Virus record (IMG/VR): IMGVR_UViG_3300031848_000657
Location: 1 to 24,233 of that record
DNA: 24,233 bases
DNA from: a virus
Taxonomy: Duplodnaviria > Caudoviricetes
Reading direction: 5' to 3' (one strand)
Shown: piece by piece, positions 4,575 to 21,770 of the stretch
Layout of the letters: every line of letters begins with the position of its first letter
Numbering within the stretch: position 1 is the first letter of the stretch
Made by a program: the position numbers and the translations under genes
The notes under the pieces: model-generated
Database searches by the model: none
Seen by the model: the letters and a program-made list of their open reading frames with translations, nothing else
Told to the model about the DNA's origin: nothing

Positions 4575-5375
4575 TTACCAGTAAACTACATAAATCATGC
4601 CGCCACCACCTGGCCCGCCGCATCTACATGTGCCGTCATTAGTCCACGCTGCAAATCCGCCGCCTCCTGGATGGAAGCCTGCCATCATACATGCTTGTCC
4701 GCAACAACTTGTATAGTTTCCGCAAATTCCGCCATAGCAGCTGTTACAACAAGTACTTGATCCTTGTGGTCTTGGTCCTGGATGTCCGTACGCATTTCCT
4801 GCTGCTTGCCATCCAGCTTCTACACAAAATTGTGAACTGTGATACATTCCAGAATTACCTGGAGTATGTTCTAGTGTGGTAATTGCTGCTCCGGTATTGT
4901 AGGCGCATCCGCCACAACATCCACACATAGAACAACATGAATAACAACTAATTGACAAGTTACATCTTGGATATCTAGCAGTATATAAACCGCCCGTTAC
5001 ACATCCACACCAAGTACCTTCTTTGCATATCGTAGATGCACATCCACACCAACCTTGGCAACAACTCATATCTGTACCGGATGTTCCTGCTGAACACAAA
5101 CAAACCGTGTCACCACCACTAACAGTTACTTCATACATTGCATAGCCACCGCCGCCACCGCCGCCACCTTGTGTACAGCAACATGCAAATCCGCCACCAG
5201 CGCCACCGCTCCATACTTCAAAAATTGCTTTTGTCTTGCCAGTGGGTACTGTCCAAACATATGCACAGCCGCCATTTTCTTTGATCCATTTTTGGTCGTT
5301 TTCGATATAAAATTCTGCGGGTTTTATTACCCCTCCAGCTTCATACCCGTATATTAGATCTGTTAAATTACTCAT
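4575..5375 (-). CDS. Cys/Gly-rich putative tail-tip adhesin, paralog C, 266 aa (31 Cys by hand count)
   Basis: WTVPTG...FEVWSGGAGGG.ACCC.QGGGGGGGGY and C-terminal HPGGGG...GGPGGGGMIYVVYW, the glycine-rich-domain layout of phage tail proteins. Confidence 0.7.
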   Translation of the reverse strand: MSNLTDLIYGYEAGGVIKPAEFYIENDQKWIKENGGCAYVWTVPTGKTKAIFEVWSGGAGGGFACCCTQGGGGGGGGYAMYEVTVSGGDTVCLCSAGTSGTDMSCCQGWCGCASTICKEGTWCGCVTGGLYTARYPRCNLSISCYSCCSMCGCCGGCAYNTGAAITTLEHTPGNSGMYHSSQFCVEAGWQAAGNAYGHPGPRPQGSSTCCNSCYGGICGNYTSCCGQACMMAGFHPGGGGFAAWTNDGTCRCGGPGGGGMIYVVYW

Positions 5376-5387
5376 TTCTTAATCCTT

Positions 5388-6143
5388 TTAAGTTGCCGCA
5401 TGCCATTCGACTAAAATTAATCCGCCTGCTCCGGCAGCACCACAACCTTTATATGTATTATGACTTGATGGAGTACCGCCGCCACCTCCTGGAAAGTGTG
5501 AGTAGCCTAGCTGTCCACATCCGCAACAATAACCCGCACATGCATCTCTGGATGGACGGAAGAAGTTGCCTACAAATGGCGCAGTAGGGGCCCATGAATA
5601 TGCTGTTCCTGAACAAAATGCTGTGCCTTTCTGAGCACCCATTGCGCCACAGAATCCAAAGCCTCCGCACCAAGATCCACATAAATGTGATGAACATCCC
5701 ATGTAAGTTGTTCCAATTGCTCCCCAACAAAAATTACAGCCTCTATGGCCACCGGAAGCACATGCTATGTTTACAGCTTCTGTTGTGCCATATACGTAAG
5801 TTGGATAAGCATCGCAGCCATTGCCGCAATCCTGTGAACAATATGTTGAACCAGCTGCACAAAATCTATATGTTTGGCCTGGTGCTGTAGTGTTAATAAT
5901 TTTTCTTGAATAACTACCTGCTCCGCCGGGCGTACCAAACTGGCAACAACAAGAGCCTGCACCGCCGCCACCGCCGCCCCACATCTCTACTGAAAACCAT
6001 GTTACTCCGGCTGGAACAGTCCATAAGCAACAGCATCCAGAGTTGTTTTGATCGTCGACGTTTGTAGCATATACTGCCATTGTATCGACATTAACGGTGC
6101 CGCTGCTGCCGCCATATTGTAACATTGTTTTAAGTGCTGACAT
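5388..6143 (-). CDS. Cys/Gly-rich putative tail-tip adhesin, paralog B, 251 aa (23 Cys by hand count)
   Basis: GCCCLWTVPAG...VEMWGGGGGGAGSCCC...GGAGSY, and FPGGGGG...GAAGAGGLILVEW. Confidence 0.7.
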   Translation of the reverse strand: MSALKTMLQYGGSSGTVNVDTMAVYATNVDDQNNSGCCCLWTVPAGVTWFSVEMWGGGGGGAGSCCCQFGTPGGAGSYSRKIINTTAPGQTYRFCAAGSTYCSQDCGNGCDAYPTYVYGTTEAVNIACASGGHRGCNFCWGAIGTTYMGCSSHLCGSWCGGFGFCGAMGAQKGTAFCSGTAYSWAPTAPFVGNFFRPSRDACAGYCCGCGQLGYSHFPGGGGGTPSSHNTYKGCGAAGAGGLILVEWHAAT

Positions 6144-6146
6144 TGT

Positions 6147-6821
6147 TTAACCCGCCTTTGTGTCTGGTGCTAATGGATACTGTACTTTCCAAGCTTCAAT
6201 CTCATCCGATTCACCATGTTTGAATACAGTTGGTAATGCTCTAAGTGCTGCTCTATAGTTAACCCAAGGAGTTTTTAATGCACTTGGCATATCCGGACTA
6301 ATCTTTCCATCAGATCCTTCTAACATTGCATCTCTATTTTCAATAACATCAGTCCAAGTTACATCTGGACCTCTATATGCTGGGACAGCCCATGTTTCAT
6401 TATCTATGTCATAAACTATTTTATCTTCATGTACATATGTTATACCTACGTCTGGTTTGAGTTGATATTTAACTGTATAAGCACCTACTGTTTCAGTTAC
6501 TTCGCTATCATTGTTTACAGTATTTGTTGAGCCACCAGGCCTAACAATTGCCATTATCAAAGGATCATCTGCAAGAGTAACTTCTACTCTAACAGTTCCT
6601 AGTGGTAATGGAACTGTTGCTCCATCATCTGCTTCCAGCAATTCTTGCAGTGCTAGGCTTCGTTTTCCTTTGTTCTCTCCGTCTGCGTCAACAAACAAAA
6701 AAACCTTATCCGGGCCATTGTACGTCAGCGAAACTGTATCATTGTCGCTATCACTTTGCGTATAACGCTCGTTTGGTACTTTGTAAGTAAACGTCCTACT
6801 AGTTATTGTATTTGTTGGCAT
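6147..6821 (-). CDS. Tail fibre assembly chaperone-like protein, 224 aa
   Basis: C-terminal TWTDVIENRDAMLEGSDGKISPDMP....WVNYRAALRALP...WKVQYPLAP is a typical tail assembly chaperone domain pattern. Confidence 0.75.
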   Translation of the reverse strand: MPTNTITSRTFTYKVPNERYTQSDSDNDTVSLTYNGPDKVFLFVDADGENKGKRSLALQELLEADDGATVPLPLGTVRVEVTLADDPLIMAIVRPGGSTNTVNNDSEVTETVGAYTVKYQLKPDVGITYVHEDKIVYDIDNETWAVPAYRGPDVTWTDVIENRDAMLEGSDGKISPDMPSALKTPWVNYRAALRALPTVFKHGESDEIEAWKVQYPLAPDTKAG

Positions 6822-6839
6822 TATCTTTCCTCGCTTAAA

Positions 6840-7631
6840 TTAATTATATATAACAACGACTTGTCCGCCCGAGCCTGGTTGTCCATTATAATGAACGCCG
6901 CCGCAAGCTATAGCTGAAATTCCAGGTCCTCCTGGAAAACTTTGTCCAGTAAATGGGTCGCCACTGGTGCACATGACATGTCTGCCTTCTTGATGCCAAC
7001 ATGAACATAAATCTTCGTTTCTGCGGCCTAATTGTTTGAATCCACCGGAATCCCACATAAAGAATTGTGAGTGACAATATTGATTTCTCATTCCTGTGCC
7101 GCCCATACCTGCAATCTTTACATCGCCGATGCCTTGGGATGTACCTGATGAACCTTTGTTAATTCTTCCATGGCAACAAGTATATGCTCCATAAGGACTA
7201 CTGTGTCCTGCCTGTGAGTTTCCATCTTGGCCGCCACATGCACAAGCAATTACTGTTGCAGCTGTCACGTCATAAACATAACTTGAACAACCTATACACC
7301 CGTTATTACTAATTTCGTATGCACATGAAGTTGAACTTCCTGCACAAATTCTATATTGACAGCCTGCTACTGTATCAACTCTGTGTTGCACATAAGAGCC
7401 TGCTGTACCTTGATATGCTTCGTACACACAACAACAACCATCGTTGCCTGATGCGCCGCCGCCCCATAGTTCAAAAGTAATTGATGTCATTCCTGCTGGA
7501 ACTGTCCACAAACAACAGCATCCGCCGTTTGCAGGATCATTTACTGAAGTATGATAGACTTTCAAACGCTGTGGTACATTACCAGTGAACTGCGGTCCTA
7601 TATCACTTAAAAGTGCTGTTAGTGTTGTCAT
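6840..7631 (-). CDS. Cys/Gly-rich putative tail-tip adhesin, paralog A, 263 aa (20 Cys by hand count)
   Basis: GGCCCLWTVPAG...FELWGGGASGNDGCCC...AGSY, and FPGGPG...GQPGSGGQVVVIY. Confidence 0.7.
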   Translation of the reverse strand: MTTLTALLSDIGPQFTGNVPQRLKVYHTSVNDPANGGCCCLWTVPAGMTSITFELWGGGASGNDGCCCVYEAYQGTAGSYVQHRVDTVAGCQYRICAGSSTSCAYEISNNGCIGCSSYVYDVTAATVIACACGGQDGNSQAGHSSPYGAYTCCHGRINKGSSGTSQGIGDVKIAGMGGTGMRNQYCHSQFFMWDSGGFKQLGRRNEDLCSCWHQEGRHVMCTSGDPFTGQSFPGGPGISAIACGGVHYNGQPGSGGQVVVIYN

Positions 7632-18697: not shown

Positions 18698-20164
18698 TTA
18701 TCCTAAACTAATCACTAATTCTAACGCAATATTTTCAGCATCACCTTGAGATATACCAGCGCCTGCTCCTGCAACTGATCCCCAGCTACCATCGTAAACT
18801 TCAACTCTTGATTCTACTGTATTATATCTTACCATTCCTGTTTCTACTGTTCCTGGTCTTTGTTCTGAGGTTCCTACAGGTAAAACAAATCCTCCTGTAC
18901 CACCAAATTTAACATATCCAGTTCCAGTTTGATTAAACTGAGTTATTCCATTATTAGTTAAGTTTGTTATAGTATTATTTTTTATTGCAAGCGACCCATC
19001 AAATACAACACTTCCTGTACCGTTTGCATCTAAATTTAAATCTGTATTAGCTGTACCAGTACTAATAGTATTTGCGTCAAGTATTAAATCGTCAACTGTT
19101 ATTCTAGGAGCATTTAATCTAGTGCTTGTAATATCTACTACAGTACTTCCAGCAATATTAAATCTAATTGTGTCGTCGTTTGCTCCAGGCGTTGCTTCTG
19201 CTGTAACTTTAGTATTTCCATCTAAGTCTTGCACACCGTTAAGAACGATCCAATTTGATCCGTTATAGCCTTCAAAATTATTTGTGTCACTATTATATCT
19301 AACTTTACCAGGTGCAGCAGTTGGACGTTGTGCTGTTGTTCCAACTGGAAGTTTTAAAGATCCTGTACCTGTTATATTTACATTACCACTATTAGGAGCA
19401 AGTATAAGATCACTTGTACTCGTAATTGTTCTGTTTTTAAAGCTTAAATTATCAACTACAACACTTCCTGTGCCGTTTGCTCTAAGTTCTAAGTTAGCAT
19501 TTGAAACACTAGTTTGTATAATATTAGTAGCAATGTTTATGTCGCCAATATTACCCTGTGTAACTATAGCGTCATTAATATAAGCATTATTCCATTTCTT
19601 TGAAGCTGCACCTAAGTTATATGTATTATTAGCATCTGGAATAATATTACTTGCAATGTCAGCATTAAATGTTACATTGTCTGTGTCTGCATCGCCAATG
19701 GTAATATTTCCGTTTGCAGTAATGTTTCCTGTAGCTGTAATATTTCCGTGTACATTTGTATTACCAATTATTTCCACAGTTCCTGTACCATTAGGAACAA
19801 ATTCTATATTAGCATTAGATGCGTTTGTTGAAATAACGTTATTAGTAATATCGATTGAATCAATTGTTAGTCTTTTATTATAAACAACATTATCTGCTGT
19901 TCCTAAAATTAATGTAGGTGCAGTTGTGCTGATAGTGTTTCCACTAAATTGCACAGCACCAAAAGTACTTGATCCGCTTACTTGTAATCCAGGGGTTCTT
20001 GTTGTGCCAGTAACGTCTAAATCGTATTGGGGACTTGCGTTGTTGATACCAACGCGGCTGTTATTAACATCTAGATATAGTAAATTCGTCTCAAAAGCTA
20101 GATCTACGCCCTCACGGAGCAAATTTGCTTTTAAGAGCGGACCACTAATGCGACCAATAGCCAT
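18698..20164 (-). CDS. Tail fibre/baseplate-associated structural protein, 488 aa
   Basis: Repeats of N.I.T...NA.L...NGTG.V and two copies of LPVGT..QRP....G.VRYN. Paralog of 20304..21770. GAGGAG RBS. Confidence 0.8.
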   Translation of the reverse strand: MAIGRISGPLLKANLLREGVDLAFETNLLYLDVNNSRVGINNASPQYDLDVTGTTRTPGLQVSGSSTFGAVQFSGNTISTTAPTLILGTADNVVYNKRLTIDSIDITNNVISTNASNANIEFVPNGTGTVEIIGNTNVHGNITATGNITANGNITIGDADTDNVTFNADIASNIIPDANNTYNLGAASKKWNNAYINDAIVTQGNIGDINIATNIIQTSVSNANLELRANGTGSVVVDNLSFKNRTITSTSDLILAPNSGNVNITGTGSLKLPVGTTAQRPTAAPGKVRYNSDTNNFEGYNGSNWIVLNGVQDLDGNTKVTAEATPGANDDTIRFNIAGSTVVDITSTRLNAPRITVDDLILDANTISTGTANTDLNLDANGTGSVVFDGSLAIKNNTITNLTNNGITQFNQTGTGYVKFGGTGGFVLPVGTSEQRPGTVETGMVRYNTVESRVEVYDGSWGSVAGAGAGISQGDAENIALELVISLG

Positions 20165-20280
20165 CTTCTCTCCTCAATACGGGGATCCTGTCCCTCTAGC
20201 CAAATTCACAGTCTTTCGACTCTTTGCTGGTTAACCACAGTGTGTCACTGCATGTATTTGGTCATACGTTGCAGCAATAG
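20165..20280 (-). ncRNA. Candidate structured 5' leader (cis-regulatory RNA), family unknown
   Basis: The only long intergenic gap inside the structural block. Pairings read by eye: UUGCUGCA/UGCAGUGA with inner GUAU/AUAC; UUAACCA/UGGCUAG enclosing AGUC-GAAA-GACU; and GGGA-CAGGA-UCCC just before the GAGGAG RBS. Confidence 0.5.
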
Positions 20281-20288
20281 TATTTATC
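20281..20288 (-). promoter_or_regulatory. Late promoter GATAAATA(CTATT)
   Basis: ATAAATA core 15 nt past the upstream stop and immediately 5' of the structured leader. Confidence 0.7.
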
Positions 20289-20303
20289 GAAATGTTAGAT
20301 TAA

Positions 20304-21770
20304 TTAACCCAGTATAATTGTATATTGGAGAGCAAGTTCATTCATATATTCTTCTGAAACAGTGCCTCCTGAACCTGCTGATAAAATGTACGTAGATCCA
20401 TTCCATGTTTCTAACACACTTTGATCAGTGTTCCATCTGGTATCACCTATAGCTGGACTGGACCAACGATTCCCGTCAGTTCCAAACGGAATAACCATTG
20501 CTCCTGTTACCCCTGCTTTAAAGTAACCTTTGCCAGTTGGAAGAAATTCTAAAGCACCATTTGAATTATTAGTTATTGTTTGTTGCTTAAATTTTGTAGT
20601 ACCTATTACAACACTTCCTGTACCATTAGGTGTAATATTTAAATTAGTATTAGCAGTTGAAGTAGTTACTGTACTTGCGTTTAAATTTATATCATCAACT
20701 TGTAACGCTCTTAAATTTATTCCTGATGAGTCAATTGATCCTGAACTAGTATTATTAGCAACAAAATTTAAAGTATCATTAGTAGGATGTGCAGTTAAGC
20801 TAGTTTGGATATCATCTGAATATACGCCGCCTAATGGCATATATCCTGTATCTGCCCGCCCTTCAAATAAGGATGCAGCATTATTAAATCTAAGTCCGCC
20901 TTCTGTTGAAGGACGAGCTATAGTATCACCTACTGGCAATGTTAATGCTGTTGTTGATGAAATATTTAATTCATTAGTTACATTAAACCCTATTGGTCCG
21001 CCTAACGTAGATATAGTTCCATCTTCGATCATTACTAAATTGATATCAACAGCTCTACCATTGACTGTATGTGATATGTTTAAATTACTATTAAGTTGAG
21101 TTGCTATTAGTACATTTGTGTTAACAGAAAGTTCTGGAGTTGCAATAGACCCAGAGTTTAATGTAGCTGCATGTAGATTATTCCAATACTTACTAGAAGA
21201 TCCTAATTCTGATACATCATTAACATCAGGAAGTATATGGCTGTTTACATCACTTTGAAAAATAACAGAGTCAGTGTCATCATCACCTAAAACTAAATCA
21301 CCACTAAATGTAATATTTCCAGTAGCATGTATATTTCCTGTTGAATTCCAGTCAGCATACATTTCAACTGTTCCAGATCCACTAGGCTCTAGACTTATAG
21401 TTTCGTTAGATTGATTAGATCTAAATGTATTAAAGTTAACTGTTAGATTGTCTGTTACTAATCCTGAAAGAAAAACACCGTTTGCACCGCTGAGATTTAT
21501 ATCTCCACTGTTTTGATATATTCTATTAGTGTCAAGAGTCCAATTTTGTATGTTAGCATTATTCGAAACTAGATTTGTACTAACTAACGCTGTTGGAATA
21601 TCTAAAGAATATCCTGTAGCAGGAGACTCGGTATTAATACCTATTTTCTTATTAGTAACATCAAGATGAAGTAGTGCAGTTGCACCGCTTGTATTTTTAA
21701 AATTTAAATTTGATCCGTTACGTTCTAAATTATCTTTTAGAACTCCGCCACCAATTCTACCTAACGCCAT
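20304..21770 (-). CDS. Tail fibre/baseplate-associated structural protein, 488 aa
   Basis: MALGRIGGGVLKDNLERNG vs MAIGRISGPLLKANLLREG in its paralog. Also LPVGDTIARP...GGLRFN, IPFGTDGNRW...GDTRWN and the C-terminal ELALQYTIILG. Confidence 0.8.
   Translation of the reverse strand: MALGRIGGGVLKDNLERNGSNLNFKNTSGATALLHLDVTNKKIGINTESPATGYSLDIPTALVSTNLVSNNANIQNWTLDTNRIYQNSGDINLSGANGVFLSGLVTDNLTVNFNTFRSNQSNETISLEPSGSGTVEMYADWNSTGNIHATGNITFSGDLVLGDDDTDSVIFQSDVNSHILPDVNDVSELGSSSKYWNNLHAATLNSGSIATPELSVNTNVLIATQLNSNLNISHTVNGRAVDINLVMIEDGTISTLGGPIGFNVTNELNISSTTALTLPVGDTIARPSTEGGLRFNNAASLFEGRADTGYMPLGGVYSDDIQTSLTAHPTNDTLNFVANNTSSGSIDSSGINLRALQVDDINLNASTVTTSTANTNLNITPNGTGSVVIGTTKFKQQTITNNSNGALEFLPTGKGYFKAGVTGAMVIPFGTDGNRWSSPAIGDTRWNTDQSVLETWNGSTYILSAGSGGTVSEEYMNELALQYTIILG

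Follow-up and report, generated by a model that had tools for sequence, protein, structure and literature searches.

Introduction

The operators of the alpha operon and of rpsO, as summarised in PMC3616713, are pseudoknots that lie over the start of a coding sequence and repress by entrapment. [quoted passage not shown] The T4 controls set out in the relevant part of that paper deal with replication, lysis and a small number of further genes.

Here we describe an RNA element of about 200 nt (20083-20277) ahead of, and extending into, a predicted fibre gene. It is a real, phage-specific element and its structure is well supported. Our best reading is that this leader is a cis-acting translational operator for the fibre gene, akin to the pseudoknots of the alpha operon and of T4 gene 32, and we put the probability of this reading at about 0.5. 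A conserved RNA of this size, bracketing the start of a fibre gene throughout a large group of uncultured jumbo phages, would extend such tuning by a dedicated RNA to the assembly of virions.

The locus and its genes

The window, by which we mean the whole stretch of DNA that was analysed, is a 24-kb virus record (24,233 nt), and the leader and the genes around 20165-20303 read on its minus strand. They belong to a minus-strand block of virion genes with fibre, baseplate-like and chaperone-like matches in PHROGs. Within this block, a gap of 139 nt (20165-20303, minus strand) separates two paralogs. A sequence-only reading of the window had singled out this gap as unusually long and GC-richer, and it is both: the other gaps between 4566 and 23670 are 33 nt or less, and its GC content is 0.42 against 0.38 for the window. 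The features of the locus are as follows.

20304..21770, minus strand: upstream paralog without a leader, 488 aa
20281..20287, minus strand: T4-type late promoter-like motif ATAAATA, from sequence
20170..20175, minus strand: Shine-Dalgarno (SD) sequence GAGGAG, from sequence
18698..20164, minus strand: gene behind the leader, 488 aa, predicted virion fibre/baseplate-associated protein

The product of the leader gene matches phrog_6005, a virion structural protein (E 1e-35), and phrog_32294, a baseplate wedge (E 1e-9), and a phage-tail-like trimer domain is present in 49% of the members of its Atlas neighbour cluster. A Pfam search gave no match, and searches of PHROGs and Pfam revealed no known RNA-binding domain. 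The fold model is poor (pLDDT 60.9, pTM 0.28), with a best structural match of TM 0.24 or below, and was set aside. The sequence-only reading had offered the stoichiometry of the two 488-aa paralogs as one thing that an operator may set. The equal length of the two paralogs is peculiar to the window. Among relatives the leader gene encodes from about 350 to 3591 aa, and its N-terminal domain is kept despite this variation in length.

The upstream paralog is preceded by a gap of 29 nt, gives no match to the leader covariance model, and reads GGU AGA at the codons that correspond to the GGU C of the leader gene. As it has no leader, it was used as a control. The neighbouring fibre genes (1590 and 1608 aa) likewise follow short gaps, of 33 and 22 nt, without such a leader. 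Readthrough of the stop codon of the upstream paralog was considered and rejected, since 139 nt is not divisible by three and the gap contains in-frame stops. Elsewhere in the window, three Cys-/Gly-rich paralogs (phrog_4205, Gly_rich_2) occupy 4575-7631, with one tail-assembly-chaperone-like gene between them and another behind, and a carbamoyltransferase gene (Carbam_trans_N + C; 2-1549) adjoins the structural block.

The consensus of T4 late promoters is given as TATAAATA in the relevant part of PMC3014915. Six of the seven minus-strand copies of ATAAATA in the window lie in gaps or on stop codons, and TAAATA occurs within 90 nt upstream of the pseudoknot core in 266 of 269 leaders. By this resemblance, the copy at 20281-20287 presumably acts as a promoter.

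Distribution of the leader

Protein-based searches, in which the best 80 matches per scan were kept, found at least 211 loci, 203 of them with 200 nt of upstream sequence. Among the matches listed, the motif stands ahead of 201 of these 203 orthologous genes, 194 by a strict pattern and seven as variants recognised by eye. The strict-pattern loci are redundant (120 distinct 3' ends), and, as only the best 80 per scan were kept, the protein-found loci are skewed toward close relatives. The two orthologs that have no motif are L048 and L051. At L048 (2470-2500) the promoter motif is present and the leader absent, and both GGUC and the coding hairpin have been lost as well. L048 is thus a natural deletion control; the search returned no close relatives of it.

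Two gene-blind scans with a DNA pattern, covering 23 and 29 of 64 parts, yielded 240 loci. The same gene family starts in the flank of 236 of these, one locus ends just past the start codon, and three (L202, L211 and L231) were set aside as chance matches. Further, the covariance model finds a single strong copy per contig (E 1e-17 to 4e-8) in all ten large contigs searched, where second matches score E 0.44 or worse. On sequence evidence, then, the leader is linked strictly in cis to one gene.

The contigs related to the window measure 182-358 kb. The gene pair comes after an apparent major capsid gene in five of the six large contigs examined, and one of these capsid proteins shares 68-71% identity with its counterparts in cultured jumbo phages, among them Sinorhizobium phage Phosso, Serratia phage BF and Cronobacter phage GAP32. 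The RNA is present in none of three cultured capsid-protein relatives (Sinorhizobium phage Phosso, Vibrio phage 2.275.O and Cronobacter phage GAP32). A blastn search of 50,697 phage records returned no match, and none of the phage records covered 80% of the leader-gene protein. Among the phages tested, there is no cultured carrier of the motif.

A bacterial search over 17 of the 64 parts of GTDB gave 120 pattern loci. Two of them, L551 and L612, match in full and precede the same phage gene; they lie in contigs of a Neomarinimicrobiota MAG (a 335 kb contig) and a Dehalococcoidia MAG. These are probably binned phage DNA and no evidence of a host. The best of the weaker loci were rejected as homologs, as they fall in coding sequence, which we take to be the C-terminus of prolyl-tRNA synthetase.

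One marine RNA library contains five short contigs at least 99% alike to genes of the window. The RNA-library data consist of contigs, so that strand, ends and level are not readable from them, and a stretch that they leave uncovered carries no information. Several to many contigs of relatives end near 20200-20207, the 3' edge of the pseudoknot, a picture that assembly breaks at the variable hairpin P3 would also produce. One other ends about 5 nt past the promoter motif (20275-20277), which is either an assembly break or a real end.

With a promoter-like motif of its own and a folded core, the element might be a small RNA in its own right, transcribed from the late promoter and working in trans or as cargo of the virion. 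We consider this exceedingly unlikely. No terminator lies between leader and gene, and constraint enters the codons. RNA-library contigs of relatives from four studies also bridge leader and gene, joining hairpin P4 to the coding region, although this is weak evidence where DNA may be present.

A conserved pseudoknot core

Folded alone, the leader reaches -29.3 kcal/mol (z -0.80), and 41 of 200 shuffles fold equally well. The single leader is no stabler than its shuffles, so that the case beyond chance rests on homologs. We gathered 271 distinct leaders, of which 269 were cut into fixed blocks to give 165 distinct rows. Changes were counted on a tree of 245 proteins, and covariation was assessed in an alignment of 68 sequences, with two very long variants left out. 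The core consists of the following elements.

20225..20239, minus strand: pseudoknot stem S1, UGU 20239-20237 with GCA 20227-20225, from covariation
20196..20234, minus strand: pseudoknot stem S2, 20234-20229 with 20196-20201, plus A20228-U20203, from covariation
20210..20221, minus strand: P3, an optional hairpin in the long loop of the pseudoknot, with a GAAA tetraloop in the window

Together, S1, S2 and P3 have 91.3% paired cells and 55 both-side changes in the 68-sequence alignment. Neither figure was reached by any of 500 shuffles, and versions of the structure slid along the alignment are 27-50% paired. The check that the sequence-only reading had proposed, for conservation and covariation upstream of orthologs, thus came out in its favour on both counts.

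The first pair of S1 is U-A in 155 of the 165 rows, C-G in nine and A-U in one. On the tree each side of this pair changes eight times, with eight joint changes, and S1 is 100% paired in the alignment. The independent-pairs test for S1 stands at 3/3, too few for significance. The same test is significant for two positions of S2, with 12/12 (p 0.0005) and about 7 against 0 (p 0.016). The stem also tolerates mismatches, A.A at one position in 46 rows and A.C at another in 21, as in the window. The pair 20228/20203 is C-G in 88 rows, A-U in 52, G-U in 17 and G-C in five of 165 (independent pairs 7/7, p 0.016). All four helices named in the sequence-only reading are present in the sequence, the last ending 6 nt before GAGGAG. 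Its stem 20228-20234/20196-20202 covaries as S2, except that the partner of A20228 is 20203 and not 20202.

S1 and S2 cross, and hence form an H-type pseudoknot with a first loop of GG. RNAalifold prefers a nested hairpin (UGUGG with CC-N-GCA), which shares S1 and cannot hold the covarying pairs of S2; we rejected it as the final structure, and it is possibly a folding intermediate. When the window's 206 nt are folded without crossing pairs, GACC joins the core GGUU and the pseudoknot model is not recovered. The program cannot form pseudoknots, yet its fold indicates that competing pairings exist. The sequence-only reading had described a structured leader of about 115 nt. Conserved and structured it is, but the element is larger than that, and both the pseudoknot and the extension into codons had been missed.

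A search of Rfam 15 over the leader gave no match at E up to 5 or 10, and over 20 diverse homolog loci nothing reached the family threshold, in agreement with the earlier suggestion that the RNA motif is novel. A literature search found no paper on the motif, which is not described in the relevant parts of Weinberg 2017 (PMC5737381) or of two 2026 preprints. The odds are about even that the ~200-nt element is a new pseudoknotted variant of a translational operator. A resemblance to pistol, twister, HDV-like, TPP, cobalamin, preQ1 or SAM-II RNAs was considered, and dropped as none of them matched in Rfam.

The pseudoknot is compact, its unpaired bases are invariant and its peripheral hairpins tolerate change, so that one might also read it as a self-cleaving ribozyme, or as a processing element, by which the late transcript is cut in front of the gene. 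We regard this as highly doubtful, as there is no Rfam match, the RNA occurs as a single copy in a single gene context, and cleavage would need neither the fixed spacing to the SD nor the constraint in the coding sequence described below.

Hairpins around the core

Two further hairpins flank the pseudoknot.

20245..20277, minus strand: P1, a 5' hairpin of variable sequence with a conserved unpaired GACC (20263-20260) in its loop
20182..20194, minus strand: P4, the hairpin before the SD, with G-C/C-G swaps

The P1 region folds with a median z of -2.4 against mononucleotide shuffles (n=260). GACC is present in 214 of 266 leaders, and its ACC is unpaired in 200 of those 214. P1 is missing in six leaders. 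In these minimal forms (L248, L257, L263, L268, L082 and L100), the pseudoknot lies 11 nt past the promoter motif. Across the family, promoter motif and core are separated by anything from 11 to 63 nt.

P3 occurs in 133 of 269 leaders, with 20 gains or losses on the tree and both-side changes in three of its four pairs. The tetraloop hairpin at 20210-20221 noted in the sequence-only reading is thus present in the window, but missing in the other 136 leaders. P3 adjoins a T-loop-like UGNRA element. Three leaders (L174:336-420, L230:335-420 and L256:299-381) carry two extra hairpins in the long loop of the pseudoknot, one of which sits inside this element.

In a T-loop, or UA_handle, as defined in the relevant part of PMC2615604, a U.A trans pair is stacked on a Watson-Crick pair and bulged bases are left free for long-range pairing. 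The UGNRA element and one of the P4 loops would appear to resemble T-loops. The T-loop-like positions are U and A in 149 of 165 rows and the closing pair is Watson-Crick in 111 of 165, which describes sequence and not geometry. One bulged base of the element covaries with 20228.

P4 has two types of loop. Type A, an ACAGGAU-type loop found in 171 leaders, includes the window; type B, UGAAACA-like, is found in 98 and is the loop that resembles a T-loop. The spacing downstream is fixed: the SD lies 5-7 nt beyond the end of P4 (247 of 269 leaders) and the start codon 16-18 nt beyond it (243 of 266). A second conformation, in which CUGU pairs with ACAG in the P4 loop, had been proposed. The two are complementary in the window, but the pairing has no both-side changes, 500 of 500 shuffles score as high, and 98 of 269 leaders have another loop in place of ACAG. 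The idea of an operator or switch therefore survives in part: the leader is cis-linked and most likely acts on translation, while the two-state switch through CUGU/ACAG is unsupported.

The type A loop also raises the question of host CsrA/RsmA, which could repress through the GGA in the P4 loop and the GGA in the SD, as on glgC. GGA is kept in 168 of the 171 type A loops. The loop matches the CsrB repeat CAGGAU and in the window lies 12 nt from the GGA of the SD, within the range of 10-63 nt given in the part of PMC7652899 on site spacing. The other loop, however, is found in 98 of 269 leaders, and the SELEX consensus is only partly matched. None of ten contigs encodes a phage copy of CsrA, in a search whose control worked. 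Such binding would also account for P4 only. We judge it very improbable. A search for RegA matched none of five contigs, and its control was likewise silent, so that nothing follows from it.

Constraint within the coding sequence

Two features lie within the leader gene itself.

20152..20157, minus strand: codons 3-5 (UU GGU C), whose complement GACCAA stands in the P1 loop; a second pseudoknot, reaching over the start codon, is a candidate here
20083..20143, minus strand: P5, a hairpin in the coding sequence, codons 8-13 with 23-28 (in the window 20139-20127 with 20098-20087)

Every one of the 214 leaders that carry GACC is followed by GGU C at codons 4-5, as are 44 of the other 52; all eight departures occur in leaders that do not have GACC. 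Among 192 genes with GACC, Gly4 shows no synonymous change, against 11 at Gly8, 68 at Gly19 and 53 at Gly39. Similarly, the first base of Arg5 has not changed, against 20 changes at Arg17 and 13 at Arg37. In 30 genes without GACC, Gly4 has one change and is almost equally frozen. None of 11 starts of leaderless paralogs contains GGUC. This pattern of changes places the site at codons 4-5 under selection at the level of RNA.

The P1 loop is the likely partner of these frozen codons, and their pairing is a candidate. Where GACC is missing, ten of the 52 leaders read GACU or GGCC instead; wobble would still allow these to pair, and they are ordinary transitions. No case of compensation links the P1 loop to codons 4-5, and tree-aware independent-pairs tests for this pairing are not significant (p 1 and 0.5). 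GACC may instead pair with the GGU of the core. We rejected that arrangement as the main pairing: the duplex is weaker (-5.6 against -8.6), and the core GGU is broken in four leaders that have GACC (L037, L089, L305 and L311), while the codon site is broken in none.

The coding hairpin P5 was proposed from the scarcity of synonymous changes at codons 8-12 and 24-25. In a sample of every third gene (73 of 218), its median folding energy is -21.9 kcal/mol, with z -5.0 against synonymous shuffles. Eleven other segments of the leader gene have median z values between -1.2 and +0.5. For the window's own gene the values are -20.5 kcal/mol and z -3.4, against -8.2 and z -0.07 for codons 8-28 of the upstream paralog and a median z of -1.45 for 11 leaderless paralogs. 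In an alignment of 89 sequences, 88.9% of P5 cells are paired, with a covariation score reached by none of 500 shuffles. On the tree, one synonymous pair is coupled (29 and 17 changes, 32 joint) and five others are little coupled. P5 is strong (z below -2) in 194 of 199 genes with GACC, against 36 of 52 others, and has z -0.3 in the leaderless L048. Together with the frozen site upstream, these patterns put codons 4-28 under RNA-level selection.

The family also has a second GGUC at codons 8-9 (20143-20140) and a second GAC(C/U) at codons 27-28 (20086-20083), where the window has AAU U. These two strands seal the coding hairpin and might swap with the P1 loop and codons 4-5.

With P5 in place, the predicted pairing of the SD is 0.38, against 0.57 in shuffles. 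P5 lowers this pairing, so that an enhancer fits as well as a repressor. A positive element, without any repressor, would be one whose flanks keep the ribosome site open while its 5' pseudoknot recruits ribosomes or protects a long late mRNA against decay from its 5' end. P5 occupies a strand that would otherwise pair with the SD, the core can lie as close as 11 nt to the promoter motif, and the genes reach 3591 codons. This would, however, leave the frozen GGUC in the ribosome footprint unexplained, and the adjacent fibre genes of 1590 and 1608 aa do without such a leader. We consider a positive element unlikely.

No conserved helix that hides the SD stands above the null (0.54 against 0.52). 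Predicted pairing of the SD with codons 9-13 drops from 0.51 to 0.05 after codon 28 is made, but codons 9-13 were rejected as an anti-SD, being barely above the synonymous null (0.51 against 0.44).

The absence of such a helix bears on whether the element is a riboswitch or tRNA sensor. Here, the pseudoknot would serve as an aptamer for a small molecule, ion or RNA, such as a host metabolite or tRNA, and would shift GACC between the GGU of the core and that of codon 4, opening or closing the start of the tail-fibre/baseplate gene; the candidate pairing of loop and codons could act as the expression platform. If this were true, the state of the host cell would set the amount of a host-attachment part built into the virion. 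The compact pseudoknot has invariant unpaired nucleotides, T-loop-like elements and interchangeable GGU/ACC strands. Against this, it serves one structural gene with no metabolic link, matches no Rfam riboswitch and has no SD-hiding helix above the null. Sensing of this kind is, in our view, quite improbable.

A possible translational operator

A starting ribosome needs the stretch around codons 4-5 to be single-stranded. In the operator model, transcription would start a few bases after TAAATA, and the element would fold at the 5' end of the late phage messenger. Comparison supports the pseudoknot core, P4 before the SD and P5 in codons 8-28, which bracket the ribosome site. The GACC of the P1 loop could then pair with the GGUC of codons 4-5, inside the footprint of the initiating ribosome, and this closed state would lower initiation. 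The invariant core would be bound, and the closed state held, by a protein that is probably the unassembled product of the gene itself or one of its partners in assembly. The output of a strong late promoter would thereby be matched to the assembly of a low-copy virion part.

The fixed spacing to the SD and start codon, the structure running into the coding sequence and the strict cis linkage support the operator model. We also count in its favour that P5 is weaker where GACC has been lost, and that departures from GGU C are confined to leaders without GACC. The lack of a known RNA-binding domain in the product, the absence of a compensatory loop-codon case, the persistence of GGU C in most leaders without GACC, the nested fold of the window's own sequence and the six leaders in which P1 is missing count against it. 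What the leader offers for experiment is a compact fold that occurs naturally with two kinds of loop and in minimal forms, attached to a gene whose codons 4-28 show RNA-level selection.

Comparison with known systems

Like the leaders before GP20 and GP32 reported by Fremin et al. in 2023, this leader was found computationally, in IMG/VR, ahead of one phage gene family (PMC10690425). The motifs named in the relevant part of that study include none of a tail or fibre gene. Compared by description only, the leader may be among its 8,495 unnamed candidates.

With the CsrA site pair on E. coli glgC, as outlined in PMC7652899, the leader shares a loop GGA just upstream of the GGA of the SD, in type A only. 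Unlike glgC, the GGA loop is missing in type B, the consensus is matched in part, and the hairpin is set within a much larger fold.

Among pseudoknot operators, the leader belongs to none of the alpha-operon, rpsO and gene 32 families, and shares features with each. Like the rpsO (S15) operator RF00114, in the description of PMC3616713, it has a pseudoknot overlapping the coding sequence (a candidate in the leader) and an alternative nested fold; it differs in giving no model match, in its gene and in its topology. Like the gene 32 operators of T4, T2 and RB69, as they are presented in PMC3014915, it has two stems that form a pseudoknot about 30-75 nt ahead of the start codon in the mRNA of a T4-like phage. 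In contrast to gene 32, it has a hairpin 6 nt from the SD and no A+U-rich spacer, and its product is a predicted fibre protein.

The alpha-operon (rpsM) S4 operator RF00140 differs in standing before rpsM rather than a phage virion gene, and the leader matches it neither in sequence nor by model. The leader also has a pseudoknot of its own upstream and a separate hairpin in the coding region. As far as the relevant part of PMC3616713 describes it, RF00140 is a double pseudoknot over the start and early codons, for which the leader has a candidate counterpart. In both, a 5' helix is free in sequence and kept in structure, and covariation is scant where the RNA overlaps the coding sequence.
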